IMG/VR virus record: IMGVR_UViG_3300031994_000017 | Coordinates: 58,023-122,022 of that record | Source of the DNA: a virus | Lineage: Duplodnaviria > Heunggongvirae > Uroviricota > Caudoviricetes | DNA: 64,000 nt | Reading direction: 5' to 3' (one strand) | Shown here: one piece after another, positions 2,186-62,435 of the stretch | Position numbering within the stretch: position 1 is the stretch's first letter | How the letters are laid out: each line of letters starts with the position of its first letter | Notes under the pieces: model-generated | Told to the model about the DNA's origin: nothing | Database searches by the model: none | The model's input: only the letters and a program-made list of their open reading frames with translations | Made by a program: the position numbers and the translations under genes

Positions 2186-2240
2186 TTTTTCTTTTCTTAT
2201 ATATATTATACAATATTTTTTTTAAAAAGTCAAATTTGGT
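2186..2240 (-). promoter_or_regulatory. Conserved phage promoter motif (copy 1) upstream of the ligA N-terminal ORF
   Basis: Minus-strand TTGACTTTTTAAAAAAATATTGTATAATATATATAAGAAAAG; -35 TTGACT and -10 TATAAT. Confidence 0.5.
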
Positions 2241-2304
2241 CCAAAAGAAAGAAAAATAGTGTATAAACTTTCATATATTAAAAAGAGGAAAGGAGAATAT
2301 TCTC

Positions 2305-2490
2305 ATGCCCATTATTTCAAAAGTGAAACTTCCTAATATAACTACACCTTATGATATTGGCGTAAATTGGGAAAATGTTAAAGATAAACCAAATGTGGGT
2401 GGAGTTGATGTTAGCGTGAGTGATGAGGATTTAAAAATAAAAACAAATAATAATATATTATTAGAAAGTGCCGAGGAGGTAAGTTTCTAA
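2305..2490 (+). CDS. Small hypothetical protein upstream of the plus-strand fiber gene
   Basis: 61-aa ORF with AGGAG SD. Confidence 0.4.
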   Translation: MPIISKVKLPNITTPYDIGVNWENVKDKPNVGGVDVSVSDEDLKIKTNNNILLESAEEVSF

Positions 2491-2492
2491 TT

Positions 2493-4439
2493 ATGAGTGA
2501 ATTATATAGTATTAAAGAAGAAACTTTAACAAGTATAGCAAATGCGATACGTAGCAAAAATGGTAGTTCTGATACTTATACGCCTGGCGAAATGGCAGAT
2601 GCTATTGCGGCGATTAGTAGTGGAAGCGTAGAACATCTGTCGTGGCATTAGTGTCCAGAGCTGGTGCGGAATTATCTGGTGGCAGCAGCCGCGGCATATC
2701 CAACTGCGGCAGCAGATTTTACTGTTATCAATGAAAATGATTATGGTGAAGTAATGTATCAAAACATCCCCGACGCTGTAAGCAATGCAAACTCAAAACC
2801 AATTGGATATACTATTGATGGCATTACGTTTTATAACAATGAACCTGGTGTAGCAACGCCTTTTGCTACAACAAACAAAGCTGGGACATTAATGGCTTTA
2901 GATTGGCTCAGATGGTATAATACGACATTGGCACCTAAGGCGGAAGGAAGCTAGTATCCGCGTGGAAAGAATTGTAGAGATCTTGGTGGTTGGGCTTGTG
3001 ATGGTGGTACAATTAAATATGGGATGCTCGTGCGCGGCTCTGAGCCAAATCCTGCCGATAAAGATTTAATGGTCAACAAAATTGGCATCAAGACTGAAGT
3101 TCAGCTCCTACCGGTCTCGGAACAAGGCACGAATTACAAAATGAAATCTCCATGGGGCATTGATTGGGCAGGAAATGACACAGAGGCTAGTTCTGTTTAC
3201 AGCATTACCGACAGCAAAGTGCTTTGGAAGAAGCTCCTCGAACCTATCATGGATTCTGTTATTCACAGCAAACCAGTTTACTTTCATTGTGGTGTTGGCG
3301 CAGATCGCACTGGTGTTATAGCTATGATGCTAGAAGGACTGCTTGGGGTAAGCAGAGCTAATGTAGATATGGATTTTGAACTTACGAATTTTGCGCTTGG
3401 ATGGAAAATAATTAATGGTAATGTATATCGTTCTAGAGCATACCCTACATATCAAAGTATGATGACGGCTTGGATGAGTGACAGTTCTAATCCTCTAGTT
3501 GGGGGATTAACAGATAGTTTTCGTAATCGCTGTATCTCTCATGTTTTGTCTTGCGGTATTAAAATTGATAAAATCAACGCTTTTCGTGCGGCAATGATTG
3601 ATGGAAACCCTGAGACGATCACCATTACAGTACCAGCTTACACAATCAGCAAGAGTGGAATTAATATCAATTTTGATAATCAAATTTCGTCTGTAAATGA
3701 AAATGACTCGTATAGCGTAGGTGTGACTCCGGCAAGCGGCTATGTGATTTCTGATGTCTCCATAACGATGGGTGGCGTGGACATCACGAGTCAGGTGTTC
3801 AGCGGAACTCCAACCACGCGCCGCGTCCGTGTAACAAACAATCTGGTAAACTGCTCCACGTCCAACAGCGCAAAAGTGGTTGAGACTGGAACGGCATATG
3901 CGGCTACGATCACCGCTGACGAAGGGTACACGCTTGATGGAGCAATAATAACTATTACAATGGGAGGAACTAGCATGAGTCAATATTATTCAAATGGTAC
4001 AATCAATATTCCTGCTGTGACTGGTGATGTTGTTATCAGCATTTCAGCGGTTGAATCTGTTCGGGAGAATCTATTTGATCCTACTAACGCACAATATAAT
4101 AAGAGAATCAGTTATAGTAGCGGCACAGAAAGAGACAAGACTGGCGGTTTGGTCACAAATATGATTGATATTACTAACATTAACACGCTTACTGTTGAAG
4201 GAATCACCGAGCTGGCATTGTTTGAATCCCTTTATGCTTTGGAAGCATACTATTCAACAGGCACGTTTGGTCAAGGATACCTTGGATACAGATCATCTAC
4301 GAGTGCTACATATGTTTTTGATGTCGCATCTTACAAAGCAGAGTATCCTACCGCTACGCACATTGCGCTCTACTTCGGTATCTCGACTGAAGCAATCTCG
4401 GCGGCAAATGTGGCAGATCTTGCTATTTATGGTAGCTAA
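2493..4439 (+). CDS. Tail-fiber or receptor-binding-like protein. It has an N-terminal anchor module shared with the 14195..16081 paralog, a Cys-based phosphatase domain (HCGVGADRTG, CX5R) and Ig-like repeats. It contains 2 in-frame TAG codons.
   Basis: ATG at 2493 after a GAGGAGG SD. Two in-frame TAG codons are read through. The N-terminus ETLTSIANAIRSKNGSSDTYTPGEMADAIAAIS parallels SNLTAIANAIRAKNGLSASYTPAQMPAAIGEIS of 14195..16081. The GC content is elevated. Confidence 0.5.
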
Positions 4440-4486
4440 AAAAGACATAACTATAATAAAATCTAAAATGCGAAAAATTAATTAAA

Positions 4487-4520
4487 TGAAAAGACGAGTC
4501 TTTAAAGACTCGTCTTTTTT
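4487..4520. terminator. Bidirectional intrinsic terminator between the convergent fiber gene and the topoisomerase gene
   Basis: AAGACGAGTC-TTTAAA-GACTCGTCTT perfect hairpin flanked by T/A runs. Confidence 0.6.
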
Positions 4521-9208: not shown

Positions 9209-9295
9209 TTATTTGCCTCCATACATTGACTTTTCAAAAAAAATTATTTATACTATTTATAGAGATTGAAAAATCAATTAATTTTATTATCTTTT

Positions 9296-9350
9296 TTCTT
9301 TATATAATATATTATATCATATTTTTTCATAAAAATCAAGCAAAAAATAA
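9296..9350 (-). promoter_or_regulatory. Conserved promoter motif (copy 2)
   Basis: TTGATTTTTATGAAAAAATATGATATAATATATTATATAAAG on the minus strand. Confidence 0.45.
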
Positions 9351-9399
9351 AAAAGGACTATATTAATATAAAATAATATAGTCCTTTTATTAAAATTTA

Positions 9400-10713
9400 T
9401 TACATTTTATTTGCTATTTCCGCGATTTTACTTCTATGAATTTGATTTAGTTCAATTTCACCATAAATATCTTCGCCTCTAAAAATTTTAGAAGCTCGAT
9501 ACATACCATTCTTTATACCTTCATAATTAGTTAAATCAACCTAGCTTTTTATATCACCATCTAGAATAAAAATAACATCTTCTCCTGCGCGCTATAATGC
9601 TAATTTTAATAATTCAACATCTAAATTTTGCGCTTCGGTAATATAAATACCGGCATTCATTCCAGAAGTATCATATCCTCTAATATCACTTATAGGCAAT
9701 AATATTAATTTTTCATTGTTTATTAACTATTCTACAATTAATTTACTACCTAATTTGCTTGCTAAAAAGTTGCCTATTTGAGAATCTAAAAGTTTAGCAT
9801 CTTTACTGCCTGGGTAAAAGCCAAGCTTGGCCGCATTTTTAGTCGCTACTGGATTACAAAAGATAATTATTTTATCTATTTTATTTTTTTCTAATAAATA
9901 GAATAAATAACCAATAGCCAAATAAGATTTACCTGTGCCCGCAGGCCCTTTTATCATTGTTATTTGGTTATTTAATAAGCTATCTGCTACCATAGCTTGA
10001 TAAATATCATCTTTATAAGGTTTAATTTCTCCTAATTGTTTAGAGCAAAAACTTTTGTATTTTAATGGACGAAAAGAATTTCCTAACCAGCATAAAGTAT
10101 CTACTCTATTTTTAGTTTGAGTTTCATAAATATTTAAATATTGATTTACTTTTAATTTTAAATCTTGCCCAAGTTTTTCTGGATAAGAATAAAAGTCAGC
10201 CATTTCTTCCTCATTAAGGTAAGCATCAATATATCCTTTATAATCATCTTTGATTTTTTCGCTTTTTACATTTTCTTTACCAAAGAATTGTTGAGCGATT
10301 ATTTTTAAAGCCAAATCATTAGTATAAAAAACACATTTTTCATCCCAATGAGTTTGTAAATAATTATAAGCTGCGGCAAGTATTTTACTATCATTATTTA
10401 TTTCAATATTTAAATCATGAAGCCAATTTTCAAAATTAGTTTTATAAATAATACAAGTATATTTATCAGGATTTTCATCTAATTGATGTAGTAGCTACTA
10501 TGCTTTACTTTTAATACTTGAATCTTTGTTTGCGGAAGTTTTTATATTTTCTAATTCTTTTAATGAAATATTTGTAATAACTATTTTGTCATTGGTATCA
10601 AAAATTTCTTCTGCTTTAATTAATAAGCTACTTGTGTCATATATTTTAGTCATTTTCATATTCTTCTCCTTCTTGCGGTATAGTAAAACCAATTGCGGAT
10701 ACATTATTTTCAA
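9400..10713 (-). CDS. phoH: PhoH2-like protein (PIN domain plus PhoH ATPase) with at least 6 in-frame TAG codons, including a TAG-TAG tandem
   Basis: The N-terminal PIN shows KIYDTSSLL and SLKELENIK. The Walker A is GPAGTGKS. The C-terminal ILDGDIKS[TAG]VDLT aligns with the conserved PhoH GD-x-TQ-I/V-DL motif (recalled from memory), placing TAG at a Gln. The true stop is TAA at 9400. Confidence 0.6.
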
Positions 10714-11029
10714 TATTTGTATTTGTTGCTATTTTTGTTTGATTTTCCGCAATCTTTAACGCTACTTCACTTTGTTTCTATTGGAACCAACTTGCGCACG
10801 TATTAAATATATTATCTAATACTGATACTCCCCAAGCGCCAAAAGAGAAGCCTAAGAAAAATATTGTTATTTTAGAAATAAGACATCATCCTCTCTTATT
10901 AATATATAGGGGTAATAATTTATTACCCCTATATGTATTATTTAGCAGTAGAGTTTTTATTTAAATAATTGATTTTAATTATCCAAGAGGAAAATTTTCT
11001 TTTTCCTTGTTTTCATTTTTATCAGAGTT

Positions 11030-11764: not shown

Positions 11765-12880
11765 TTATTTTTTTTCAGTATAATCAAGGCAAATCCAACC
11801 AGCGCCAGATTTTAATTTGCCCCAATTATCCTTTTTATCAACAATAGTATATACACCATTTTTATAAATAACAGTTTTAACGCTATAATTGGCGCCTGGG
11901 CCGCTGCGGACATTAAGTGCGTTCGCGGTTACACGGATTACATAGGGGTCAAAAGCAGGGGCAGGTGGTTGCGTGCTGGCCGCAGCTTTAGTGAGATATT
12001 TTGTATTAATAGGGCTACTAATTGAACTCTTTTGGTCTTCTGATTTATCAATAACAGCTCTATCACCTTTAATAGATTTAATATACCATTTTTTAGCTAA
12101 TACCCATGAAGGAATTGCTTTTCCGTTGTAATAAGTTGCGCCAGATTTGATATCAACTAAATCGCCAGCCTTAAATTCTTCGGTAGTTGGGGGAGTCGGC
12201 GGTTCAGGCTCTTTTGCGGCTGGAGGAGTAGTTGCTTTTAAAATCGCAGAAACGTCTGCCCGCACATTGTTCATATCTTTATTGTATTTATTAAACCAAC
12301 TATAAATATCAGTGTGCGCGCCTCCAAGACCTAACTTATAGCTATCCCAGTGGCAAAGAATGGTAGGAACTTGAACGCCCTTATACTATACTGTGCCATT
12401 TGGATCAATATTAAACATATTACATAAATAGGCAGTTATTTCACAAGCTTCTTTATAAGCCTTATTAAAATAGTCCTAGCTTGTGTAGCCGTCATCACAG
12501 ATTTCAAACTAGATCCAAAATGGTCCACCAGTAGAACCATTACAACTACCTTTAGGTCCTGAGCCGCAGCCCCAAGGACGATAATTCCAAGGCATTGTTT
12601 GAACAGTGGTTATAGTTCCATCCGCCAGTTTACCAACCCAGCAGTTAAGACCAGCAGAGTGATGAATATGATTCCAATCATTCTTATAAGCATTTTTACC
12701 TAATAATTGAAGTAATTGAGCTTTATTTGCCGCATTATCATCTGGTTGAACATATCTGCGAAGTTCTGGGTTTCCACCAGCGGTATCATGCCAAAGAATG
12801 CCTACGGGTGTGCCTTTTGTGGTACCTTTATAGCAAGTACTCTATGTCATCATACAAACTAGAGGTTTATTATTTGTATT
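11765..12880 (-). CDS. Endolysin: an N-terminal catalytic domain that uses TAG codons, plus C-terminal tandem SH3b cell-wall-binding domains
   Basis: The C-terminus has KAGDLVDIKSGATYYNGKAIPSWV and VIRVTANALNVRSGPGANYSVKTVIYKNGVYTIVD (SH3-like). The N-terminus MKYNTNNK...GILWHDTAGGN... has a GGAGG SD at 12880 and 4 in-frame TAG codons. Confidence 0.55.
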
Positions 12881-12897
12881 ATATTTCATAAAAAATC

Positions 12898-13210: not shown

Positions 13211-13633
13211 TCACTCTGGCTTCTTATCTTCGTATTTGTTTTTAATGCGTGTCGCATATTCAGAATAAACATTTACAATATCTTTTTCAAATTTTTTACT
13301 TTGATAAATATAATCTTTAATTACTTCCAAATCATCTTCTCGTTGGCGGATTTGTCGCTGAAGCATTATTGCTTCATAACTCTTTGGATTATATTTTTTG
13401 CTTTTATTCATTGAATAATATAATTGCTTTAAGGCTTGTAATTGCGGTTTAATTTCATTTTCTCGGACGAAACATAAATATTTACGAAATGCTCTTCGTT
13501 CTGCGAGAGAACCGCCAATATATTCACTAAACCTATCTTCTGGATGACAATGAGCTTCTCCAGTAAAGGAAAATCCTTTGTAATCCATAACCGCAGTTGT
13601 TAAACCATTTTCCGCATTGAAAAAAGTTTCCAT
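13211..13633 (-). CDS. Hypothetical protein
   Basis: 140-aa ORF; a promoter motif lies upstream at 13640-13690. Confidence 0.4.
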   Translation of the reverse strand: METFFNAENGLTTAVMDYKGFSFTGEAHCHPEDRFSEYIGGSLAERRAFRKYLCFVRENEIKPQLQALKQLYYSMNKSKKYNPKSYEAIMLQRQIRQREDDLEVIKDYIYQSKKFEKDIVNVYSEYATRIKNKYEDKKPE

Positions 13634-13639
13634 ATATAG

Positions 13640-13690
13640 AACTCCTTTTTTCTTTTATTATATCATATATTTTTATAAAAGTCAAAACAA
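13640..13690 (-). promoter_or_regulatory. Conserved promoter motif (copy 3, more divergent)
   Basis: TTGACTTTTATAAAAATATATGATATAATAAAAGAAAA on the minus strand. Confidence 0.4.
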
Positions 13691-14194: not shown

Positions 14195-16081
14195 TTATGT
14201 GATTACTTCATTGATCGTGATGGTCCAATTTGCGCCGGACCCATAGCCCGCGATGCGCAGTAGCGGTCGGTTATTTACTGATTTCAGTGGCATATTATCA
14301 GGCGTCAGCGTCCATGTCATATTGCCGCTCGCATCAAAAGCGATTGTTCCATAGTTGGTGGATGTACCCTCCGTGAGATAACCGCCGCCAACAAAGGTCT
14401 CATCCGTATGGTAACAGCACCACGTTGCGTTGCTGTGTGTAGACTTTCGCATATCCACACCGCTCGTGCGGATGACAACAGTCTCGCCCTTGTCCACCCA
14501 CGGCGTCAGATCGATGAAGCCGGAGGTCGTGTAGCCAGTGGCAGCAGAAAGTGTGCCTTTGCTTGTGGACAGGCGATAGCCGTCTGTGTAGCCGATTGTG
14601 TTGATAAGGTTGGTATAACCACTCGTCACACAGGAAATCGTGATGTTCCCGGTCACATTTGCGATGGAGATTGTTCCATTATTGTATGCCGTCGCAGAGA
14701 TGTCCACGCCTCCCATTAAGACGGTCACGCTGCCGATGGTGTAGCCACTCGGAACGGTCAGTGTTGCGCTGTAGGTCTGGCCCTCTTCGATAGATGTCGC
14801 CATGTTAGAGATCTCCGCCTTGCCAAGGCTGTTGATCGTAATCGTGTATTGTGCCGTCACGTAGTTATAGGTCCGGTCATAGCCGGCGCCGTAATGGTCT
14901 GCGTATATGACACCGCGATCCAGGTCGATGCTCACCACGACAAAGGCCGTGTCCTGTCCGGAGTCAGCGGTCTTGTTGTAAGTAGTTGTTTCGCCGAACT
15001 CGACGCCATTAGATTCTGTTCCGCTATTGCGGCCATATTCGTTATTGCGTCCGAAGCAGACATTTGGTACCGCCAGTCGGACCACATCCATCTCACCCTC
15101 GTCGATGGCGCCACCAGAGTATCCGATGGCGTGGAGCTTGCCCATGAGGTAATTGTGAGTGTGCCCATGAATCTGCGCGATGAGCTTAGCACTGTTTTTC
15201 CCGGAAAAATTGTAGCTTATTGTTATTCCGTCATAAGCCAGTGAGACAGCGCTGCCGTTTAAGTATGCCTTGATTATCTGAGACACGCGGAAGGTCTGCC
15301 AGTCGATTGGGTGGTGACAGCAGATAATCACTCCCCAATTAGCTGCGTCGCTCTTGCTACCAACCTCGCCGAGCCGGTCGGCAAACCACTGTAGCTGCCT
15401 GCCGCTGATCCACAGGTCCTTCGATTGCGTGTCCGCTGTCGTCTCGGCGCTGTTAAGGCAGATCACCCGGATTTGCTTGGATACAAAGTCCTGATAGCAG
15501 TATCCGCCCTTGAGATTTTGCGGATCGACCGTGCCGGTGCTATAGACGCCGACCAGGTTATACATCTCGTCCCGATAGATCGGCGTGTGACCACCGAGGT
15601 CTGAGGAAAAGTGTAGATTATCATGGTTGCCAACACTATGGAACTGCGGCAGACTTCCGAAGGCGTCCGCGAGGTTGGCATGCATCTGCCTAATCTCCGC
15701 AACGCCGTTATCATAGGTTGTGTTGCTGCCGCCGGCGGTGGCATCTCCTAACCACATGCAGCAGTCGATCTCCAGTGCCCGGCGCAACAGGCTGGCCGCT
15801 TGTCCAGCGTGCTTTGCTGAGGTAACAAGCTGCGCGTTAGTGCGGTCGATGTGACTATCTGATAGCGCAAGAATGCGGAAACCATTCACGATCCCGTGGC
15901 TACTGACCTGATTGGCCACCCGGAGCGCCTCCTGTACCACATAACTGTCCGGATAGCTGCTGATCTCCCCGATCGCCGCCGGCATCTGCGCCGGGGTATA
16001 GGATGCGCTTAACCCGTTCTTCGCTCGAATCGCGTTGGCAATCGCGGTGAGGTTAGATTCTGTTATTAAAGCTTGACTCAT
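14195..16081 (-). CDS. Receptor-binding or tail-fiber paralog with a calcineurin-like metallophosphoesterase domain and Ig-like repeats; GC-elevated
   Basis: ILALSDSHID, GDATAGG, GNHDN and GHTHNY metallophosphoesterase motifs. The N-terminus is shared with the 2493..4439 protein. The repeat TLTVPSGYTIGSVTVLMGGVDIS resembles SVGVTPASGYVISDVSITMGGVDIT. Confidence 0.55.
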   Translation of the reverse strand: MSQALITESNLTAIANAIRAKNGLSASYTPAQMPAAIGEISSYPDSYVVQEALRVANQVSSHGIVNGFRILALSDSHIDRTNAQLVTSAKHAGQAASLLRRALEIDCCMWLGDATAGGSNTTYDNGVAEIRQMHANLADAFGSLPQFHSVGNHDNLHFSSDLGGHTPIYRDEMYNLVGVYSTGTVDPQNLKGGYCYQDFVSKQIRVICLNSAETTADTQSKDLWISGRQLQWFADRLGEVGSKSDAANWGVIICCHHPIDWQTFRVSQIIKAYLNGSAVSLAYDGITISYNFSGKNSAKLIAQIHGHTHNYLMGKLHAIGYSGGAIDEGEMDVVRLAVPNVCFGRNNEYGRNSGTESNGVEFGETTTYNKTADSGQDTAFVVVSIDLDRGVIYADHYGAGYDRTYNYVTAQYTITINSLGKAEISNMATSIEEGQTYSATLTVPSGYTIGSVTVLMGGVDISATAYNNGTISIANVTGNITISCVTSGYTNLINTIGYTDGYRLSTSKGTLSAATGYTTSGFIDLTPWVDKGETVVIRTSGVDMRKSTHSNATWCCYHTDETFVGGGYLTEGTSTNYGTIAFDASGNMTWTLTPDNMPLKSVNNRPLLRIAGYGSGANWTITINEVIT

Positions 16082-18688: not shown

Positions 18689-18709
18689 AATTTATATTTT
18701 CTCCTTTCA

Positions 18710-46217: not shown

Positions 46218-46276
46218 AATATAAAAACAAGACAGTATATTAATTGCTTTATCCTCTAAGCTAACTTTCCTATTCA

Positions 46277-46345
46277 TGGCGGAAGGTATCGGAATCGAAC
46301 CGATGATACATTAAATAATGTATTTGCTGTAACTGTCTTTATCTT
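46277..46345 (-). pseudogene. tRNA-like 3' fragment with a CCA end and T-arm (ATCGGTTCGATTCCGAT) but no canonical 5' acceptor strand
   Basis: Sequence inspection. Confidence 0.25.
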
Positions 46346-46390
46346 ACATATATATTATATCATATTTTTTTTAAAAAATCAAATTAATAT
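46330..46390 (-). promoter_or_regulatory. Conserved promoter motif (copy)
   Basis: TTGATTTTTTAAAAAAAAATATGATATAATATATATGTAAGATAAAG on the minus strand. Confidence 0.5.
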
Positions 46391-46449: not shown

Positions 46450-46716
46450 TTATTTAGCCAATCAGAATCTTTCCAAGTATAATTTCTAAAGGTAAGTAAA
46501 TTCATTCTTGCTAAATATCGTCCTAAAATATTTTTACCTTTATACATTATGGTTATTTTTTCCCAATATTTTTTAATATATGGATAATCTAAAGCTTTTA
46601 ATACTGGCAAAAATGTATTTATATTATAAGGATCAATAATATTTATTAACTCTTGTTTTGTATGCTCAGTATAAAATTGTTTATTTTTTTTCTAATAATA
46701 CTAATGTTTCATTAAA
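46450..46716 (-). CDS. Small hypothetical protein (2 TAG codons)
   Basis: MKH[TAG]YY[TAG]KKNKQFYTEHTKQELINII... Confidence 0.25.
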
Positions 46717-47521: not shown

Positions 47522-47529
47522 AATTTCCC

Positions 47530-47585
47530 TCCTTTATTTTCTATATATATTATAATATATTTTTTTAAAAAAATCAAATTATTTG
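47530..47585 (-). promoter_or_regulatory. Conserved promoter motif (copy)
   Basis: TTGATTTTTTTAAAAAAATATATTATAATATATATAGAAAATAAAGG on the minus strand. Confidence 0.5.
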
Positions 47586-48144: not shown

Positions 48145-49387
48145 TTAAGGCCATTCACCCAACGGCTTACCCAACTTACCAACTTCAATATCAGTATTAA
48201 AATACACACCCTGAACAGCTTCACCTGTAAGAATGTCCTTAGCAATGTCCTGATACAAAGTGCTAACCACACCATGACAATCATTAAGATTATCATTAAA
48301 GAACTGTACAACACAGTTCTTAAATACAACATAAGTCATAGCAAACCAATTATATCCATCTTCTACTGGAGAAACAGCATAAGCAAAAGCGGGATTCTTT
48401 TCAAAAGCAGTTTCAAAGAGTTCCTTCTTACTTACAAAAGCTCGATTACTAGGAACACCATCTACCATAACCTTCAAGATAACATTGCCGCAATAAATTT
48501 CACTAGGCAAAATTTGCGTAAGAGCCGTTACCTTATCCGAGTTATTACAAGCAAGAATAATAAAAGGCTCTGGACCGCTCCAATTCACATTACAAGCAAT
48601 CTGAGGGTCTCCATCAAACAAAGCTTCAATTTCATGGATATAAGTAACCCAAGGAGGGGAAATCTTTAAACGAACATTATCCATTTCTGTCTCCTTTACA
48701 TATTTTCAAAAGTAGCTACCGCGCTTTCAGTTTCCGTTACTTCAAGGCAGGCATTTTTATAATATTTGCGCATTTGCTCATAAAAATCTTGTGCCTGCTT
48801 CAGCTCATTACTAGCAATATTCAACTTCTTCAAAGCTCTCTTCATGCGCTTACGAGCAATCTTATGAGCACATCTTGCGGTTGCAAGGTCTTTACCTTTT
48901 TCAAGATCAAACCGGTCATTAGGAGCGCACTTAGCAATACCACGAACAGCCTTACCAGCGTAAGTTGAAAGAGCAATTACCTTATTACCAGCGGTAATAT
49001 ACTTATAATTATACATATTTTTTCTCCTTAATTATTTTTCATTTTCTATATATATTATACTAAATTTTTTAAATAAAATCAAATTTTGTTTCTTTTTATT
49101 TTTAAAGTACAAGATTGATAAATAGGAATTATTAGAAAATTTTCTATTTCTTCATATTCATGGTCTATTATTTTCATTTCATTATAAGCGTTTTTTAAAT
49201 AAAGATAAAAATAACATCCTTCTTCTAAAGGGTAATTAATATTAACTTCTATTTTTTCTTCACTTTTATCAAAATTATAATTTATAGTTTTACTTGGTAT
49301 TAATTTATAGCAATCACCATTTTTATATAATGGTTGATATCCCGCCACAACGATTCTTAAATCATCAATTATATCTTGTTTTGTCAC
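48145..49387 (-). CDS. Three hypothetical proteins (48145..48684, 48696..49016 basic, 49079..49387)
   Basis: ORF track. Confidence 0.35.
49040..49090 (-). promoter_or_regulatory. Conserved promoter motif (copy)
   Basis: Same consensus. Confidence 0.5.
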
Positions 49388-50182: not shown

Positions 50183-50259
50183 TGGTAGCGCGTGAGGGAT
50201 TCGAACCCTGCGCCTCCGGCTTGAAGGGCCGGCGTCTTAGCCTACTTGACTAACGCGCC
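50183..50259 (-). tRNA. tRNA-Glu(TTC) (probable; position 33 is C)
   Basis: Stem CCGGC/GCCGG with loop CCTTCAA. Confidence 0.45.
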
Positions 50260-50559
50260 ATATAAGATAGGTACTTGCTTCGCTTTATTTTAAGTCCCAC
50301 GTAGAATGTACCTTAAAACCTTGGACTAAATAAATAACTTTTCCACGGATCGCTTTTAATTATGTCCGAAATTCTAGCGCGCTCTTAGTTACTGTTGTAT
50401 TCCCCAACCTATCTCGCCCTGTTGAGGAGCCTCGGCCTTGAGGCAAGTTATTTATTAAAACTATTTTCAGCTCGCATCAAAGAGATAGTTTTAAATGCGC
50501 CCAGGAACACCACGTGGAGGTAAATAGTCATCGTCCCCATAGAAAGAATTTATTTCTTT

Positions 50560-50620
50560 CTTTATTTTGTATATATATTATACCAAATTTTTTTTAAAAA
50601 GTCAAATAATTTTCTAAATG
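50560..50620 (-). promoter_or_regulatory. Conserved promoter motif (copy)
   Basis: TTGACTTTTTAAAAAAAATTTGGTATAATATATATACAAAATAAAG on the minus strand. Confidence 0.5.
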
Positions 50621-50704: not shown

Positions 50705-50730
50705 ATATTAAGCAAGACACTTATAATTTT

Positions 50731-50796
50731 AGAGGGTCGGATTTGAACCGACAATTTCCAATTTTTTAGATTGGCGACTTAACCCTTTGTCTACCC
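50731..50796 (-). pseudogene. Degenerate tRNA-like element (anticodon loop CTAAAAA, weak acceptor stem)
   Basis: Perfect T-arm GTCGGTTCAAATCCGAC, but the acceptor has 2 internal mismatches and no CCA. Confidence 0.25.
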
Positions 50797-50829
50797 AAAA
50801 AATTAAATTTGCTGTAAATGTCTTTAAAA

Positions 50830-51344: not shown

Positions 51345-51433
51345 AGACCATATATGGTGAAAGATATGGGAATTGAACCCATCTGTTTTTCTCGGTGCAA
51401 GCGAGACGACTACCCCATGCAGTCCTATCCCCC
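51345..51433 (-). tRNA. tRNA-Ala(TGC) with G3:U70, A73 and CCA; unusually extended 5' region
   Basis: Stem TCTCG/CGAGA with loop CTTGCAC; acceptor GGGGGAT/ATCTTTC via G:U pairs. Confidence 0.45.
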
Positions 51434-51439
51434 ATCTTT

Positions 51440-51490
51440 CTTTACCTTACATATATATTATATCAAATTTTTTTTAAAAAATCAATTTTA
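51440..51490 (-). promoter_or_regulatory. Conserved promoter motif (copy)
   Basis: Same consensus. Confidence 0.5.
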
Positions 51491-52214: not shown

Positions 52215-52270
52215 TCCTTTCTTCATTTTCTATATATATTATATCAAAAATTTTTATAAAAATCAAAAAA
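52215..52270 (-). promoter_or_regulatory. Conserved promoter motif (copy)
   Basis: Same consensus. Confidence 0.5.
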
Positions 52271-53916: not shown

Positions 53917-54294
53917 TTATCCAATAGCAAATGAACAAAGATGTTTTACACATTCAGGTTCATCAATTTCAAAATATCCATTCTTCTTTTGGTCGTATTT
54001 AAAAAATTGGCGGTTCATTGTATCATTAGAAATACCTTCATAGTATTCTTCCAAAACCGCGTAATTATAAATAGTCTCCCAAAGATCAGTACGATTTTCA
54101 TGAAGGGTATTAAGAGCGTCTTGTTTGTTAGAATAAAATCCCCAACAACGCTGATCGCCAAAATCAGTATAAAATTGTTCGCTAGGTCCAATTCTTTCCA
54201 TTACAGTAATAAACCAATAAGATTGTTTCATATATCCTCCATAAAATAAATTAAAACTAGACACTTTAAAAGAAAAATGTTGGATTTGAACCAA
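53917..54294 (-). CDS. Hypothetical protein
   Basis: 125-aa ORF. Confidence 0.35.
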   Translation of the reverse strand: MVQIQHFSFKVSSFNLFYGGYMKQSYWFITVMERIGPSEQFYTDFGDQRCWGFYSNKQDALNTLHENRTDLWETIYNYAVLEEYYEGISNDTMNRQFFKYDQKKNGYFEIDEPECVKHLCSFAIG

Positions 54295-54345
54295 CTACAT
54301 CCAGATTACAAAGTCAGGCGCTCTACCATATGAGCTAAATTCTCT
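54272..54345 (-). tRNA. tRNA with a TTTGTAA-containing anticodon loop (Thr-TGT-like; imperfect stem)
   Basis: D-arm TAGCTCATATGGTAGAGC; T-arm GTTGGTTCAAATCCAAC. Confidence 0.4.
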
Positions 54346-54366: not shown

Positions 54367-54461
54367 GTGCCTAAAATGGTACTCCCCCTCGGATTCGAAC
54401 CGAGATCGTACGCTAATCTGGCGCCTTATGCCGGGCATAAACCGGTTGCACTACCGTTGTG
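54367..54461 (-). tRNA. Atypical 95-nt tRNA-like with candidate anticodon TAT (loop TTTATGC) and a very long variable region
   Basis: Acceptor GCTCCCC/GGGGAGT, discriminator A, CCA; T-arm CTCGGTTCGAATCCGAG. Confidence 0.35.
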
Positions 54462-54561
54462 CTAGGGGAGCATATAATAGCAGTTATAAAACAGAACCAA
54501 TGTATACATTAATTCCTAGAACTGACCTGCTACAGTTTATATATCTTAAATATATCATTAA

Positions 54562-55133: not shown

Positions 55134-55184
55134 GCCCATCTTTTTAGAGTATTGATCTACCAGCTGATCTATTTTCAAAATTAA

Positions 55185-55254
55185 TGGCTTGAAAAGTTGG
55201 AATCGAACCAACGACATATACTTTGTTAAGTATGATTGCTGTATAGGCCTATTA
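55185..55254 (-). pseudogene. tRNA-like element with a good T-arm/acceptor 3' strand and CCA but a non-canonical 5' half
   Basis: GTTGGTTCGATTCCAACTTTTCAAGCCA; no matching 5' acceptor strand. Confidence 0.25.
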
Positions 55255-56449: not shown

Positions 56450-56538
56450 TGGTCCCTCGTTGTGGAGTCGAACCACATGAGTCGTTAGACAACGGGTTTA
56501 CAGCCCGCACCGCTTCCACATACGGTATACCGAGGGAT
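56450..56538 (-). tRNA. tRNA-Tyr(GTA), class II, CCA
   Basis: Stem GCGGG/CCCGT with loop CTGTAAA; acceptor TCCCTCG/CGAGGGA. Confidence 0.55.
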
Positions 56539-56704
56539 ATTTTAATAAAAAGGTCCATCGCCGAAGTTTCATGCCCTTGTTTAGCGCTTTTAAGGGGTCA
56601 CCCAAGACCTAGCGATGCTTAACTGGGTACTGACCTTTTTATCTAAATGTAAGATAAAAGATTGAAGGTCATTGTAAAATGTCAAGTCCTCTTTTCTATC
56701 TTGA

Positions 56705-56765
56705 TTTCTTATCTCTTTATCTTACATATATATTATATCATATTTTTTTTAAAAAATCAATTTTC
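56705..56765 (-). promoter_or_regulatory. Conserved promoter motif (copy) driving the non-coding/tRNA block 56680 to 55570
   Basis: Same consensus. Confidence 0.5.
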
Positions 56766-57265: not shown

Positions 57266-57724
57266 TTGAAATTCCTACCTTTCAAATTAAATTTTGCGTC
57301 CTCGCCTTCTTCCTCGGGACTTGGAACCCGCATACGGTGGTTTACGCAAAATATATAAAAACTAGAGGCAAGAAAAACACATTGTAAAAATACAACTGGG
57401 TGTAAAAGAAACCTCTAGAGTAAATTCTTTTGTTCCCATACACTTTAAAATATATGAGAAAAGATGCCACCCTTCTAGCCAAGACAGCGACTCCCTAAAT
57501 CTTGGTTCTCTGTTTAGAAGGTCTTAAACTTACAAAATTGACGCGTCTTTGTAAGAAGCTGTAAGGAAGCTCAAACCGCATTGCTCATTCACCCGTCAGA
57601 ACTATGCTCCTAGGAGGTACTAATCGGCGTTTTCTTTTATTAGTGAAGAAACCCGTTTTCTCATAACCAAAAAAGAAAAACTTGCGGCAAAAGAGCTGAT
57701 ATCCGCGATACGAATTGCCGCAAT

Positions 57725-57799
57725 TGGTGCCGGATGCGAGAATCGAACTCGCGTAGTTTTGCTTATGAGACAAAACAGGAAACCAACATCCTATCCGGT
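57725..57799 (-). tRNA. tRNA-Met/Ile2(CAT) with an A1-C72 mismatch
   Basis: Stem TTTGT/GCAAA with loop CTCATAA; T-arm GCGAGTTCGATTCTCGC. Confidence 0.5.
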
Positions 57800-57879
57800 A
57801 TATAGTGGTAGTTTTACGAGCTTGACCACACGCCTCGTCATTTAATAAAACATAAATGAAATTAAAAATAATAAATTCT

Positions 57880-57940
57880 TATCTTTATCTTACATATATA
57901 TTATATCAAAAATTTTTGAAAAAATCAAATTTAAAATCAG
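57880..57940 (-). promoter_or_regulatory. Conserved promoter motif (copy)
   Basis: Same consensus. Confidence 0.5.
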
Positions 57941-57943
57941 GAA

Positions 57944-58249
57944 TTAAAATACTTCGGGATTACGATTAAAGAAATCTAGAAGATAACCTTCATCTTCCTT
58001 GTGTTCGCAAAACAGCTCCAAATTATCGCCATCTTTAGCGAGAAGTGCGCCAATAGCTACATATTTGCTCAATTCTGATTTTAGATTATACCTATCACCA
58101 AAAGGAGAAATCAAATAAACATCTCCCTCACAACGATCTATCGCTGCTAAAAAGTCATGTAAAACTACATCATTTTTAATCTTCATTTTCTTTTTCCTCA
58201 ACTCTTTATTTTCTATATATATTATACTAAATTTTTTAAATAAAATCAA
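57944..58249 (-). CDS. Hypothetical protein
   Basis: 101-aa ORF. Confidence 0.35.
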   Translation of the reverse strand: MILFKKFSIIYIENKELRKKKMKIKNDVVLHDFLAAIDRCEGDVYLISPFGDRYNLKSELSKYVAIGALLAKDGDNLELFCEHKEDEGYLLDFFNRNPEVF

Positions 58250-58658: not shown

Positions 58659-60106
58659 TCATAGCAATAGAAATTTTTATTTAAATAAGTCATTTTAGAT
58701 GTTAAGTAAATTTTTCCGCATCTATTACAAACAGTAGTAAAATCACTAACGCATTCTGAGCACAAAGGCTCACCGTATCCATCTTCGGCATACCATTCAT
58801 TATCTTCAATTCGGCGATCACACACAGAACAGAAAATATCTGTTAAACTAGTATTCGCAATTTTATTAATACATTCCGCGCAAATAAGTTCTCCCGGATT
58901 CTTTAAGATATTTTTTCCGCAACAAGGACATCTTACTTGGCCCCCAATAAAGAATTTCGCTCTTTCTCTATCACTAGGATGTATAGGTCTTTTTATCATA
59001 TAATAAGGATCAGTATAAAAATGAGAATTCAAAAGATCATTATAAAATAACGAATTTTTAGGCTCAACAATTAATTTATCCAAAGTCATCAAAGGCTCTG
59101 AGCCACCTACATAATAATATTTTTTGTTTAACAAAATATCTGTTTCTTTTGAAAATGAACTAGCAGTAGGATCTTTTATGCTTGACAAATTTTTATTTGT
59201 CCATTCGCTCCAGTGGAAAAGCCATTCTGGATATTTTAAAATATCAGATGACAAGTTATCATGAATAACAGATAAACTAGTGGTAATGTCAAAAGGATAT
59301 TGGCGTCCGGCAAAAATCATATCTTGTGTTTCATTAAAAAATAGCAACATGCGCCATTTTTTATTATTCCAAGGAATACCATTAAAACGTGGAATATAGG
59401 TTTCTTTGCCGCTTTTTAAATAACAAATTACTGTGCTATGGTCTATCATATATTGTAGATTACCCGCACAATAATCACCATCAAGAGCATGACAAGAGCG
59501 CCAATTTAAGGTATTTTCACTAAGAGAAAGATAATCCAGGGGATGGACAGAGAAACACAAGTATCCTTCAATTTTTTCTTTCTGAATAAACTCACTAGCT
59601 CTATCTTGAATTTTTCGTAAAAGTTGTTTATCTTGGATAAAACGCTTAAAACTTTTTACCAACTTACTATGAGAAGGAATTACTTCTTCAGCCACTTTAT
59701 TTTCATCTCTATTGGCCCATTTAACAACCTTAATATCTTTAGAGGTTTTATTATCAAAAAAATCATTTACGCCAGCTGATGAAATAAAATCATATAAGGC
59801 GCCTAAATCTGCGTCTTTCATATTAGACCATGTATAATTCTCATCAAGCCAATCCAAAAAATTTTGATACATTGTCTCTTTGTCTTTCTCTTGGAGATAA
59901 AAGGTTAAAAGTATTCCTGTTTCATAAATTAAATTACCATGAAACATTTCAATAAAATCTTCTTTATTCTTTTCCCATGTATCAATTAATTCTGAAACGT
60001 GTTCACAAGAAGTTTTTGTATTATAATCCAAAATATGTTTTACCTGTTGAGTTAATTCTGTTTTGTTCCAAATAGTCATTTTTACATTCTCCACATAAAA
60101 TATCAT
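58625..60106 (-). CDS. Large protein with an N-terminal 'HPLD...NW-SC...NKKWR' domain and a C-terminal cluster of CxxC zinc ribbons; paralog of 62431..63954
   Basis: CFSVHPLDYLSLSENTLNWRSC / NNKKWRMLLFF; C-terminus CPCCGKN...CAEC...CSVCD...CSEC...CNRCG...CYDC. Confidence 0.45.
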   Translation of the reverse strand: MIFYVENVKMTIWNKTELTQQVKHILDYNTKTSCEHVSELIDTWEKNKEDFIEMFHGNLIYETGILLTFYLQEKDKETMYQNFLDWLDENYTWSNMKDADLGALYDFISSAGVNDFFDNKTSKDIKVVKWANRDENKVAEEVIPSHSKLVKSFKRFIQDKQLLRKIQDRASEFIQKEKIEGYLCFSVHPLDYLSLSENTLNWRSCHALDGDYCAGNLQYMIDHSTVICYLKSGKETYIPRFNGIPWNNKKWRMLLFFNETQDMIFAGRQYPFDITTSLSVIHDNLSSDILKYPEWLFHWSEWTNKNLSSIKDPTASSFSKETDILLNKKYYYVGGSEPLMTLDKLIVEPKNSLFYNDLLNSHFYTDPYYMIKRPIHPSDRERAKFFIGGQVRCPCCGKNILKNPGELICAECINKIANTSLTDIFCSVCDRRIEDNEWYAEDGYGEPLCSECVSDFTTVCNRCGKIYLTSKMTYLNKNFYCYDCINEIQEKGE

Positions 60107-60953
60107 TTAATTGTTCAGGGAAAAAGGCTTTTCCGCATCTTGGGCACCATCTAGCTATTTTTAAACAATCCCAACATAAATTTACTTTCGCACCTTTATA
60201 ATAAACGGGTTCTAAAAAAGGAGTATAATGAGCGCAACAATCACACAATAACATTTCAGTCTCTATATAATCAAAACGAGAAATATTACAATTATCTTCT
60301 AATAAATTTTTGACTTTTGTTATTGTGCTATTTAAAAAATCTAATAATAAAATTTCCTGTGTAGTATGTTCATTAAAATAGCCAATAGATAAGTTAACGC
60401 CCGCTATTTTCCACTTGGGGCAAATGATACTTATATCAGTAAAAGTGCCCCAATTAGTTAAAAAATCAAAATTTTCTATGTATTTTGTAAAATCTTTGTT
60501 ATCACAATCATAGAATATACAATCTTTTTCACCTTGGCGGTCAAGTTCAATAATATATTTTAAATTTTCCATTGGCGAAGAATATTTCTTAATAAAAGCT
60601 CTTGCCCCTTGGCCGCCAATCTCTTCACCGCATGTAAAAAGAATATGCGGTTTATAATTATCTGAAATAATTTTTAAGATAGCATAAACTCCAGCTCTAT
60701 CATCCCCAATTCCACCTTCTGTGCTAAAAATAATTTTTGCTTCTTTATTATAAAAGATTCGAGAAGGTGGTGCAGAAAATACCGTATCTAAATGAGCGAT
60801 CAATAGAATAGGAATATTACCTTTAGCATATAAAAATAATTCATTATTATCTATTTTAACATATTTGTTTTTTATATACTCATATAAATATTCTTTTAAT
60901 TCTTTTTCAGTTTTTTGGACTATTTGTTTATAAAGACTAAAATCAAAGTCCAT
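60021..60953 (-). CDS. M42/M20-like metallopeptidase fold with a C-terminal Cys cluster
   Basis: AHLDTV, GGIGDDRAGV and GEEIGGQGA motifs. Confidence 0.4.
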   Translation of the reverse strand: MDFDFSLYKQIVQKTEKELKEYLYEYIKNKYVKIDNNELFLYAKGNIPILLIAHLDTVFSAPPSRIFYNKEAKIIFSTEGGIGDDRAGVYAILKIISDNYKPHILFTCGEEIGGQGARAFIKKYSSPMENLKYIIELDRQGEKDCIFYDCDNKDFTKYIENFDFLTNWGTFTDISIICPKWKIAGVNLSIGYFNEHTTQEILLLDFLNSTITKVKNLLEDNCNISRFDYIETEMLLCDCCAHYTPFLEPVYYKGAKVNLCWDCLKIARWCPRCGKAFFPEQLNDILCGECKNDYLEQNRINSTGKTYFGL

Positions 60954-60964
60954 TATTCTTTCTC

Positions 60965-61020
60965 ACTTTCTTTTATATAAATATTATACCATATTTTTTA
61001 TATAAAATCAACTTTTTATT
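60965..61020 (-). promoter_or_regulatory. Conserved promoter motif (copy)
   Basis: Same consensus. Confidence 0.45.
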
Positions 61021-61800
61021 TATTTTTATATTTATTTTCTAAAGTATTAGCAAATGACATCGCTTGCGGACAATAGTGGCATTTATCTAATTGACAAATT
61101 TGTTTACAATTAAGTCTATGTTCTCCAATATCTTCCTCTAATAAAGAATTATAACAATTATTGCCTAAATCTTTTACTATGTTATTTAAACGCCCCGGCC
61201 ATTCTTTTTTATCTTTATAAATATGTAATAGTGTGCGCTCAAAGATTAAAGGATTTTCTACTGAAACATCTTGAGTGCGGAACTCGCATATAGTGGCGCC
61301 ATATGGCTCATAAAGATAGAGGTCTTCTGGCCGCACCCATTGGCCGTAAACACCACCGTTCTTTCTAGGAATATATTCTTCAAAAGCTTTATTTGGAGTA
61401 ATCCGAATTGGAATACCAAAAGTAGCTACATCAGACATTTGGAAGAAAATTGGCATTCCTAGCCGCACATATGAAACATCCAATTCTTTTAAACATTTTA
61501 ATTCAAAGAAACTATTTGCGGGAAAGGCATAAAAAAATGGCAAATCATATTGTTTACATTTTTGATATAAATAAATATCGTATAAGCAACAATATACTGT
61601 TCCTTCTATCTTTTGATTACAAGCTTTTAACATTTGCCAAGTGGTTTCAGAAATTTCATTTTCTATATCAACTACATAGTCTTTATCTGGAAATTTCTCT
61701 ACCAAATCTAAAAGCATATCAATATCTTTTTGGCGCAAATAAATTTCATCTGCTTGCGCGAGCGTAGAACTGTCCTAGCCGCAAAATACACTAAATCGCA
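61016..61800 (-). CDS. Cys-rich hypothetical protein (1 TAG near the N-terminus)
   Basis: MRFSVFCG[TAG]DSSTLAQADEIYLRQKDIDML... with a GGAGG SD. Confidence 0.4.
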
Positions 61801-61854
61801 TTTTATCATCCTCCTTTATAAAAATTATAACATATTTTTTTAGAAAAATCAAAA

Positions 61855-61885
61855 AACCTCCCCATGAAAGGGGAGGTTTTATTCC
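61855..61885. terminator. Intrinsic terminator, hairpin AAACCTCCCC-ATGAAA-GGGGAGGTTTT
   Basis: Perfect 9-bp GC-rich stem followed by a T-run. Confidence 0.6.
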
Positions 61886-61898
61886 AAATAAGTTTAGA

Positions 61899-62333
61899 TT
61901 ACTCCTCAGTGACCAAAGAATAGACAGTTACCTTGTGCTTAGCGCCAGTTTCGCCAACAGTGGTGGTCTCCTTGGCGGCAACACCATCCGCAATCAGCGC
62001 AGACAGACGACTAGTCAGCTTATTAGGAGTAAGCTCATTCTGCGCGAAATCATTATCTGCATGAGCTTCCTGGATTGCAGTCAGCAGCTCATCACGGGTC
62101 TGAGGAGTCGCAGTGAGCGCATCTCGCACCCATTCTTTAATTTCGTCAGTAGCAGCACGCTTTTCCGCAGCACGCTCCTTAGCCTTGGCAGCCTTATTTT
62201 CCAGCTGCTGGATTTCACCTTCACAAAATTCGGTCAGATCATCAAAATCGAAACCTTCAACATCGTTATCAATTGCGTTAACAATCAGCTTCAGCAGAGA
62301 CTCAAAACGAGACTTCTTAGTAGGGTTCTTCAT
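61899..62333 (-). CDS. Hypothetical acidic protein (GC-elevated)
   Basis: 144-aa ORF. Confidence 0.4.
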   Translation of the reverse strand: MKNPTKKSRFESLLKLIVNAIDNDVEGFDFDDLTEFCEGEIQQLENKAAKAKERAAEKRAATDEIKEWVRDALTATPQTRDELLTAIQEAHADNDFAQNELTPNKLTSRLSALIADGVAAKETTTVGETGAKHKVTVYSLVTEE

Positions 62334-62374
62334 GGGTTTTTCTCCTTTTTTAATTAATTATTTTTTATTATGTT

Positions 62375-62435
62375 TTCTTTCTTTATCTTACATATATATT
62401 TTATCAAAAATTTTTTTAAAAATCAAATCTTTATT
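62375..62435 (-). promoter_or_regulatory. Conserved promoter motif (copy)
   Basis: Same consensus. Confidence 0.5.

Follow-up and report, generated by a model that had tools for sequence, protein, structure and literature searches.

A repeated, strongly conserved promoter element, probably of the host sigma-A type, before non-structural genes and tRNAs of a TAG-recoded phage

Genes and features of the window

The stretch of DNA analysed here (the window) comprises 64,000 nucleotides (nt), positions 58,023 to 122,022 of the IMG/VR virus record IMGVR_UViG_3300031994_000017 (Caudoviricetes), and it belongs to a 150,422-bp contig (ENA ERZ27256871 k141_3267896). It carries 21 copies of one promoter element of about 50 bp, which is probably read by the host RNA polymerase with its primary sigma factor. 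The G+C content of the window is about 34%, and its genes include those for gyrase A and B, NAD-dependent ligase, RNase H and SHMT, together with an RNA-repair set consisting of RNA ligase, RlaP and a Thg1-like gene. Moreover, there are 31 transfer RNA (tRNA) genes, spread across 12 kb and mixed with small open reading frames (ORFs) and copies of the promoter element. Since the window also encodes an amidase plus SH3 endolysin, a Gram-positive host is suggested. When 20 kb of the window were compared by megablast with cultured and deposited phages, no match was obtained.

The codon TAG is recoded in this phage, which is confirmed by the fact that long genes are restored and Pfam matches are kept when TAG is read as glutamine. 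TAG-containing genes are located at 375-998, 9400-10752, 11765-12889, 16103-25982 and 44061-44786, and the TAG-rich genes are those for PhoH (6 TAG), endolysin (4 TAG), two tail-fibre-like proteins (10 and 18 TAG), a GIY-YIG protein (6 TAG) and a DUF2726 protein (8 TAG).

Number and architecture of the promoter copies

The original prediction had listed about 20 copies of one motif on the minus strand, and a copy is present at all 20 listed positions; what the list did not contain is a copy on the plus strand at 9226-9274. The gap of 17-18 nt that it placed after TTGAYTTTT does not hold, as the spacer is exactly 17 bp from TTGAYT to TATAAT in 21 of 21 copies. One copy has TTGCTT as its -35 hexamer, and the 20 others have TTGATT or TTGACT. 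At -10, 19 copies have TATAAT; the exceptions are one minus-strand copy with TAAAAT and the plus-strand copy with TATACT. Of the 20 minus-strand copies, 13 have TGn immediately ahead of TATAAT (TG at -15/-14). In most copies the -10 hexamer is followed by an ATATAT discriminator and then by a conserved downstream box, either A-GAAAATAAAG or G-TAAGATAAAG. Here and below a copy is named by the first base of its -10 hexamer. The downstream box is absent from copy 13662 and degenerate in copies 61829, 9316 and 2210.

In a genome of about 34% G+C, low-complexity AT-rich sequence without function could produce promoter-like words by chance, and generic sigma-70-like matches are indeed common (125 found versus 88 expected in 20 kb). 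However, the 18-mer TATAATATATATAGAAAA with up to three mismatches has 17 matches in the window, all on the minus strand, whereas 1.15 were expected and none of 100 shuffles reached 17. A 48-nt weight matrix derived from the clear copies found 19 minus-strand sites at 41-66 bits and two weaker ones, 13662 (minus strand, 21 bits) and 9249 (plus strand, 28 bits), while the best score in 10 Markov shuffles stayed below 0. The copies are also the top-scoring sites in an independent consensus scan. In addition, strand, placement and 17-bp spacing are uniform, and the element is kept in more than 150 metagenomic phage contigs while its flanks are at random identity. Chance is thus refuted as an explanation, and we give it practically no weight. 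The flanking part of the contig, about 18 kb, contains 10 further copies, which brings the number to 31 in about 82 kb.

Transcription units behind the copies

All 20 minus-strand copies are intergenic and co-oriented with the next unit, in agreement with the earlier claim that each lies immediately upstream of a gene or of a tRNA or noncoding RNA (ncRNA) block. A Shine-Dalgarno sequence and start codon begin 17-59 nt past the predicted +1 in 14 copies and at +97 in one, and the other five copies head a tRNA, a Y-RNA-like RNA or a long leader reaching the next tRNA. The copies are given below with their coordinates, the predicted +1 and the unit behind them, and all are on the minus strand except copy 9249.

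At the right end, copy 62403 (62378-62426; TTGATT-17-TAAAAT with ATATAT discriminator; +1 G at 62391, GTAAGATAAAG) is separated by a 58-nt leader from ORF 61899-62333, and copy 61829 (61804-61852; TTGATT-17-TATAAT; +1 at 61817), which adjoins a terminator hairpin at 61853-61880, precedes ORF 61016-61801 with one in-frame TAG. Copy 60988 (60963-61011; +1 at 60976) stands before a peptidase-like ORF (60021-60953), copy 58226 (58201-58249; +1 A at 58214, AGAAAATAAAG) before ORF 57944-58186, and copy 52243 (52218-52266; +1 A at 52231), with a terminator hairpin immediately upstream, before small ORFs running from 52205 to 51500. Next come copy 49059 (49034-49082; +1 A at 49047) with ORF 48696-49016, and copy 47554 (47529-47577; +1 A at 47542) with the Thg1-like gene at 46712-47521. 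Copy 44817 (44792-44840; +1 A at 44805) is followed by a DUF2726 nuclease-like ORF (44061-44786) with 8 in-frame TAG and then by 42492-44048. Two further copies have a terminator hairpin immediately upstream, namely copy 42409 (42384-42432; TTGCTT; +1 A at 42397), which precedes a small putative transcription-regulator ORF (42136-42366), and copy 39962 (39937-39985; +1 G at 39950), which precedes ORF 39640-39921 and an operon toward the RNA ligase gene. Copy 35191 (35166-35214; +1 A at 35179) serves ORF 34557-35153 and then the PurA-like and SPFH genes, and copy 31449 (31424-31472; +1 A at 31437), again with a hairpin immediately upstream, serves a TAG-poor operon of about 5 kb (31410 to 26275) ending at a terminator at 26157-26185. 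The weak copy 13662 (13637-13685; TTGACT-17-TATAAT; +1 at about 13650) precedes ORF 13211-13633 and probably serves TAG-containing lysis and PhoH genes down to 9400, and copy 2210 (2185-2233; TTGACT; +1 A at 2198) precedes the NAD-dependent DNA ligase gene (1059-2174).

Among the five copies at RNA units, copy 57905 (57880-57928; +1 G at 57893) is followed by a 94-nt leader and tRNA-Met (57725-57799), copy 56737 (56712-56760; +1 G at 56725) by a 190-nt structured leader and tRNA-Tyr (56450-56535), and copy 50582 (50557-50605; TTGACT; +1 A at 50570) by a 311-nt leader and tRNA-Glu (50183-50259). Copy 51462 (51437-51485; +1 G at 51450) has tRNA-Ala (51355-51433) 17 nt downstream, followed by a tRNA array, and copy 46359 (46334-46382; +1 G at 46347) heads a YrlA-like RNA (46228-46339) and an amber-suppressor tRNA(CUA) (46142-46218). 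The three leaders of 94-311 nt between copies and tRNAs (56536-56725, 50260-50570 and 57800-57893, minus strand) are unannotated. In the 190-nt leader at 56536-56725 the 5' end pairs from +1 (GUAAGAUAA/UUAUCUUAC; z = -2.4). As a general means of protecting the 5' end, base pairing between the 5' box and a complement further downstream was rejected, since only about 6% of non-messenger-RNA (non-mRNA) units have it (12 of 201; control 2). A weak, sub-threshold twister-P1 match of 27 bits is located at 57295-57348 (minus strand).

The copy with the start codon at +97 is copy 9316 (9291-9339; +1 at 9304), which is followed by a 96-nt leader and the RNase H-gyrB-gyrA genes (9208 to 4520) and has a bidirectional terminator (9351-9388) upstream. 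Its leader holds the opposing plus-strand copy 9249 (9226-9274; TTGACT-17-TATACT; predicted +1 at 9261). The distance between the predicted starts of these two opposed copies is 44 nt, and their predicted transcripts overlap by 44 nt; the plus-strand copy faces the terminator and would yield only a short RNA, of about 125 nt, ending at the hairpin 9351-9388. This pair at 9226-9339 could serve antisense control or transcriptional interference.

Terminators next to the copies

In six copies the -35 element adjoins a strong terminator hairpin (-15.8 to -21.4 kcal/mol), the T-run of which merges into it. A seventh copy has a weaker hairpin (-10.3 kcal/mol) nearby, and the other 13 minus-strand copies are without such a hairpin. 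Generic terminator-like sites are not enriched at 44-64 kb of the window (14 found versus 11.5 expected), and the pairing of terminator and promoter is therefore not universal.

Such pairs raise the question of whether the copies are mobile or recombinogenic promoter-terminator cassettes of the PeSL type, whose uniformity is kept through homologous exchange of modules within and between phages. For this speak the six or seven of 20 minus-strand copies with a terminator hairpin merging into the -35 element, the density of copies among small ORFs without assigned function, tRNAs and homing-endonuclease-like genes, and the arrangement around copy 44817, where a TAG-rich nuclease gene intervenes in the window while the DUF2828 gene is directly behind a copy in relatives. 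Nevertheless, most copies have no adjacent hairpin, and the conservation breaks off abruptly at -36 and at +15, beyond which there are no repeats. The per-position conservation, given below, tracks the contacts of RNA polymerase and is not producible by recombination alone. We regard the cassette explanation as unlikely, and it would supplement the function of the copies as promoters rather than replace it.

TAG codons and the timing of expression

No copy of the element was found between 13.7 and 31.4 kb of the window, a gap in which the structural block rich in TAG (16.1-26.0 kb) is located, as is the tail of the operon of about 5 kb from copy 31449. When all loci are taken together, in-frame TAG is present in 12.7% of the genes whose start is no more than 80 nt from a predicted +1, compared with about 26% of the other genes, and the TAG density is 0.87 per 1000 codons behind the promoter compared with 2.75-3.0 in other genes. 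In the clearly recoded loci, TAG occurs in 13% of the promoter-proximal genes and in 43% of the others (Fisher p = 0.002). These contrasts may be inflated because the background gene set may include spurious ORFs. Moreover, only one of 63 TAG-rich genes has a TTGAYT-N17-TATAAT core within 150 nt upstream. The genes behind the promoter are TAG-poor and would therefore be translatable before the code switch or suppression takes effect.

This agrees, indirectly, with the label of early/middle promoters that the original prediction had attached to the copies, since few TAG codons are found in the genes served and no copy is found in the structural block, where TAG is frequent. The label is not to be taken strictly, however. 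Copies 44817 and 61829 directly precede genes with 8 TAG and 1 TAG, respectively, and the suppressor tRNA itself is behind a copy, so the split between early and late genes is not absolute.

The segment 25983-26156 (minus strand), which is about 170 nt long, lies upstream of a TAG-rich gene of 1244 amino acids and past the terminator at 26157-26185. It has neither a promoter of this family nor a -35 element, and a promoter of another, late class may be located there. A search for a shared late-promoter motif upstream of the 63 TAG-rich genes by 8-mer enrichment returned AT-rich words only.

The suppressor-tRNA unit

The amber-suppressor tRNA(CUA) at 46142-46218 (minus strand), labelled 'Pyl' by ARAGORN, is separated from copy 46359 by a 112-nt element (46228-46339, minus strand) with a predicted fold of -29.3 kcal/mol (z = -3.7). 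This element matches Rfam YrlA over the full length, though below threshold (28.5 bits; gathering 69), with E = 0.01 in 12.8 kb and 1.9e-4 locally, and both T-arm-like and D-arm-like parts are aligned. A second weak YrlA-like match is found at 55150-55220 (minus strand).

In relatives, a motif copy lies within 400 nt upstream of 12 of 16 tRNA(CUA) genes, compared with 88 of 498 other tRNAs. The intervening RNA in these relatives usually has 5' AAG-N5-(N)-ACAGCAA and 3' N5'-CTTG, and its closing stem covaries, with 12 different N5 sequences that each have a perfect complement. An exact N5 complement exists in 23 of 60 sequences with the 5' pattern and in none of 60 controls of the same composition. 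The AAG of the promoter box is the base of the closing stem, and in most relatives the stem of the YrlA-like RNA begins 8-12 nt past the predicted +1. This position, together with some leaders that pair exactly from +1, lends some independent support to the predicted start site.

The DUF2828 plus DUF7788 protein encoded at 42492-44048 (minus strand, 518 amino acids) is 50-60% identical in relatives, in some of which the DUF2828 gene is immediately behind a GT-class copy. The DUF2726 gene (44061-44786) stands between the copy and the DUF2828 gene, which are adjacent in relatives, and it therefore looks inserted. The DUF2828/DUF7788 protein was considered as a Ro60-like partner of the Y-like RNA, but no significant PDB sequence or profile match was obtained.

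Conservation of the element in relatives

Relatives were searched with an exact degenerate 23-mer reaching from the -10 hexamer through +11. It occurs in at least 117 stretches of IMG/VR viral contigs, many of them on contigs of 100-400 kb, and in 72 stretches of GTDB genome contigs, almost all of which are contigs of metagenome-assembled genomes (MAGs) of phage-like size. The only match in an isolate, in Clostridium oryzae, was rejected as a host copy: its spacer is 15 bp, it stands before a lipoprotein-like gene, and it is explained by chance in AT-rich sequence. The coding DNA of the matching contigs is 65-75% identical to the window.

In the segment from -35 to +15 the identity is 73.3% between loci and 76.5% within loci, whereas the flanks are at about 31%. 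Copying within one genome does not account for the uniformity of the element; because the identity between loci is near that within a locus while the flanks are at about 31%, the uniformity reflects a shared constraint. The slight excess within loci, a value that none of 200 permutations reached, would fit an exchange of cassettes.

The logo of the clade was built from 306 sites selected on positions -36 to -7 only. In the -35 element, T-35, T-34, G-33 and A-32 are present in 100%, 99%, 96% and 95% of the sites, and positions -17 to -14 are T (94%), A (62%), T (98%) and G (68%). The ATATAT discriminator is kept at 66-90% per position, with T at -1 in 90%, and +1 is a purine, A in 72% and G in about 28%. 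Upstream of -36 there is only a faint A bias at -43 to -48, where the information does not exceed about 0.1 bit. As a whole, the profile is bipartite and dips at -26 to -24, at -19 to -18 and at -13. The spacer is nearly invariant, with T5-6 followed by A6-8, and some contigs carry lineage-specific spacer variants.

Start classes and the transcribed box

The extended conserved downstream box of the earlier description is real. It persists among the 306 sites, which were selected without reference to it, and thus it is not an artefact of ascertainment; +3A and +4A are found in 90% and 91% of these sites and +7T in 54%, and the signal is gone by about +16. Copies starting with +1A (AGAAAA) are mostly before mRNAs, and those starting with +1G (GTAAGA) are mostly before tRNAs and structured RNAs. 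GT-start sites precede 60 mRNA and 95 non-mRNA units, while AG-start sites precede 75 and 38, respectively (p = 8e-6), and the same bias between +1G and +1A is found at sites outside ascertainment (odds ratio 0.41, p = 0.001). Of the six GT copies in the window, four head tRNA or ncRNA units. The stable-RNA promoters of Firmicutes hosts commonly start with G and sense GTP levels, and a parallel between them and the +1G class is plausible.

In mRNA units, an extended Shine-Dalgarno sequence follows the box without a gap, as in AGAAAATAAAGGAGG (copy 47554), and the resulting leaders measure 17-32 nt. A purely translational role of the box is unlikely, because it is kept equally before tRNAs and ncRNAs. 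The reading that we prefer is that the AT-only discriminator and the purine-rich initial transcribed sequence would together maximise initiation and escape, by analogy with the early promoters of T5 and T4.

Alternatively, the +1 to +14 box, possibly together with the palindromic T/A spacer, could be a regulatory site, either the operator of a shut-off repressor or a sigma-dependent pause that loads an elongation or antitermination factor. The pause version draws on the sequence TAAGAT/TAAGGT at +2 to +7, which fits the minimal -10 pattern TANNNT; both versions draw on the retention of the box before tRNA and ncRNA units, where a role in translation is impossible, on the roughly 90% conservation of +3A and +4A at sites chosen independently of the box, and on a conserved small putative transcription regulator that is itself behind a copy, and terminators separate many of the units. 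On the other side, +7T is conserved in no more than 54% of the sites across the clade, position +2 is G instead of T in the A-start class, and no binding protein or antiterminator was identified. In addition, purine-rich initial transcribed regions are familiar in strong phage promoters such as T5 PN25. We therefore hold a regulatory site to be possible but doubtful, and prefer the function in initiation and escape.

Which polymerase reads the element

The copies have the layout of a Gram-positive sigma-A promoter in the -35 and -10 sequences, the 17-bp spacer, the TRTG, the predicted purine start and the co-oriented intergenic site. The TRTG '-16 region' is typical of Gram-positive sigma-A promoters. 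The claim of host-type sigma70 promoters thus stands, with TTGAYT at -35, TATAAT at the distance of 17 bp, TRTG/TG, T at -1, a purine at +1 and the placement all in line with it. We consider it probable that the copies are host primary-sigma (sigma-A/sigma-70) promoters of a TAG-recoded phage of about 150 kb with a probable Firmicutes host, and that they serve early or middle non-structural genes, tRNAs and small RNAs.

In the mechanism that we propose, region 4 of sigma would read TTGAYT, region 3 would read the TRTG/TG '-16' extension, and region 2 would read TATAAT, positioned by the invariant 17-bp spacer. The AT-only ATATAT discriminator should melt easily, and initiation would take place at the conserved purine, 7 nt past the -10 hexamer and preceded by T at -1. 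The purine-rich +1 to +14 box (RNAARATAAAGAAAG) would then most likely lead to fast initiation and promoter escape. The units served are those of replication, nucleotide metabolism, RNA repair, tRNA arrays and small RNAs, presumably expressed in early or middle infection.

Several points weigh against the assignment to the host sigma-A polymerase. We infer the start sites, the promoter strength, the timing and the identity of the polymerase from sequence. Recognition by sigma-A alone would need neither a near-invariant spacer nor the +1 to +14 box, which implies a further constraint. The remaining 68 kb or so of the contig could encode a sigma factor or a polymerase. No genuine copy of the element was found in isolate genomes among the GTDB matches of the 23-mer, and the MAG bins of these matches are mixed (Clostridia, Bacilli, Mollicutes and even archaea or Patescibacteria), which together with the phage-like contig size suggests mis-binned phage DNA.

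It is on such points that a phage-encoded specificity factor can be proposed, whether a sigma factor resembling sigma-A, an appropriator of sigma or an RNA polymerase of the phage's own, that reads the sites and has co-evolved with the spacer and the box. Conservation well past the hexamers, about as high between genomes as within them, would be expected of such a factor, and so would the restriction of the exact element, among the matches found, to phage-like contigs, as well as the lineage-specific spacer variants, and the annotations cover about 82 kb of the contig of about 150 kb. However, the -35/TRTG/-10 arrangement with its 17-bp spacer is exactly the Gram-positive sigma-A layout. Family annotations of these 82 kb, in which some small ORFs of the window were left unscanned, include neither a gene for an RNA polymerase nor a complete sigma factor; the one match is a weak region-4 helix-turn-helix. 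The DFDGD polymerase motif, which is diagnostic for the multisubunit type only, is absent from 1.57 Mb (the window and the fetched loci). Moreover, the host enzyme must read some genes on entry and the copies are the only consensus promoters seen, and the genes that they serve are TAG-poor, as expected of the first wave of expression. A phage-encoded factor as the reader of the element is improbable in our view, and the host sigma-A polymerase remains the preferred reader.

The region-4 helix-turn-helix belongs to a protein of 262 amino acids (L194:400-1188) encoded about 9 kb past the right end of the window on the same contig. It was rejected as a phage sigma factor, since it has only a weak N-terminal Sigma70_r4_2 helix-turn-helix and the rest is non-sigma. 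Its gene call reads through one stop codon.

Comparison with known promoter systems

The early promoters of T5 (PN25, P25, P26) and T4 are of the host sigma-70 type, with many near-identical copies, conservation into the transcribed region, AT-rich spacers and purine- or A-rich initial transcribed sequences that affect later steps of initiation. The element described here differs from them in the host lineage, in the presence of the Gram-positive TRTG and in its box, whose sequence is unrelated to theirs. Promoters of phage polymerases, such as the 23-bp T7-like ones and those of the multisubunit enzymes of giant phages, are likewise uniform, present in many copies and conserved across the start site, but they form one contiguous block without a -35 element or 17-bp spacer and need a phage polymerase gene. 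Unlike the T7-like promoters, the element in the window is bipartite with a -35 element and does not form a contiguous block.

A closer likeness is found in Listeria phage CKA15, the early promoters of which were mapped by ONT-cappable-seq and consist of TTGACTT and ATGxTATAMT, resembling the SigA consensus; abundant small RNAs, possibly Y RNAs, are found near its tRNA genes (PMC12282133). The core is the same in both phages, with many copies before early genes, tRNA regions and highly expressed small RNAs in CKA15. The general early class of CKA15 has an AT-rich UP-like region upstream of -35, which its strongest promoters lack (PMC12282133); in contrast to that class, the element in the window has no conserved AT-rich UP region upstream of -36. 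The early promoters of Bacillus phage SPO1 likewise need host sigma-A (PMC13401047). The first wave of expression would thus rely on the host polymerase here, as predicted from sequence, in the same way as in CKA15 and SPO1. What sets the present element apart from both is that spacer, ATATAT discriminator and +1 to +14 box are near-invariant, and that its phages are uncultivated, TAG-recoded and known from sequence alone.

Look-alikes of the consensus, at a level of about 80%, are present in the intergenic DNA of cultured Firmicutes phages. In Enterococcus phage H1 and Lactococcus phage phiL47, look-alikes stand before tRNA arrays and early or replication genes, a gene context like that of the window; they score 15-28 bits on the window matrix, compared with 41-66 bits for the window copies. 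The PeSL cassettes of T4-type phages are repeated sigma-70-like early promoters with a stem-loop between small genes (PMC2839356, PMC4122927). Like these cassettes, the element has a Shine-Dalgarno sequence and start codon at its end, and some copies have a stem-loop directly upstream; unlike them, it has the stem-loop at only 6-7 of the 20 minus-strand copies and belongs to a different phage lineage and host phylum. Searches of the literature returned nothing relevant on the literal motif, and no paper on stop-codon recoding combined with promoters.

Other features of the window

A cluster of the RNA- or nucleotide-repair type is distributed over 26275-31410, 37053-38459 and 46712-47521 (minus strand), with RNA ligase, RlaP, a Thg1-like protein and an AAA_33 kinase, and also with two metallophosphoesterases and a nucleoside deoxyribosyltransferase. 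Its position beside the tRNA arrays would fit a tRNA-repair or anti-defence module. Within these arrays, unusual tRNA calls were obtained at 54270-54345, 50727-50801 and 54377-54471 (minus strand), among them a four-base anticodon call (ttgt), a tRNA-Phe(AAA) and a tRNA-Ile(UAU).

The protein encoded at 32499-33641 (minus strand) is a PurA-like, divergent homologue of adenylosuccinate synthetase (Pfam match 5.6e-23) that falls far under both the PurA and the PurZ cut-offs of NCBIfam, and a role of the Z-base type (base modification) can be neither claimed nor excluded for it from the sequence. The 628-amino-acid ORF at 14195-16081 (minus strand) has a G+C content of 52%, compared with 34% of the genome, and contains no in-frame TAG; it has no Pfam or NCBIfam match and may be a recent acquisition. 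Furthermore, there are three homing-endonuclease-like genes on the minus strand, GIY-YIG (375-998), zinc ribbon plus DUF2726 (44061-44786) and HNH (44842-45576), two of which are TAG-rich.

Implications for TAG-recoded phages

Repeated strong promoters of the host type are expected in the early region of a large phage and ordinary in kind. What is unusual is the degree and breadth of the conservation, which includes the spacer and the transcribed box, and the link to the suppressor tRNA. As a signature of about 50 bp that is more conserved than the genes, the element marks an uncultivated group of gut and rumen phages of 100-400 kb and points to a transcription apparatus of the Firmicutes type in their hosts. 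Its sequence is also a candidate strong promoter for low-GC anaerobes.

With considerable reserve we suggest that the T5-6/A6-8 spacer and the box might be the place where a phage factor specific to the clade docks, for instance a shut-off repressor, a modifier of sigma or a factor that is loaded at a sigma-dependent pause. If this were true, the element would mark a 'first-wave' regulon common to a large group of gut and rumen phages that are uncultivated and TAG-recoded, and the unit of promoter, Y-RNA-like RNA and tRNA(CUA) would let the same signal time the switch of the genetic code. The predicted promoters provide a first transcription map for TAG-recoded phages, with which the model of recoding as a timer for late genes becomes directly testable.

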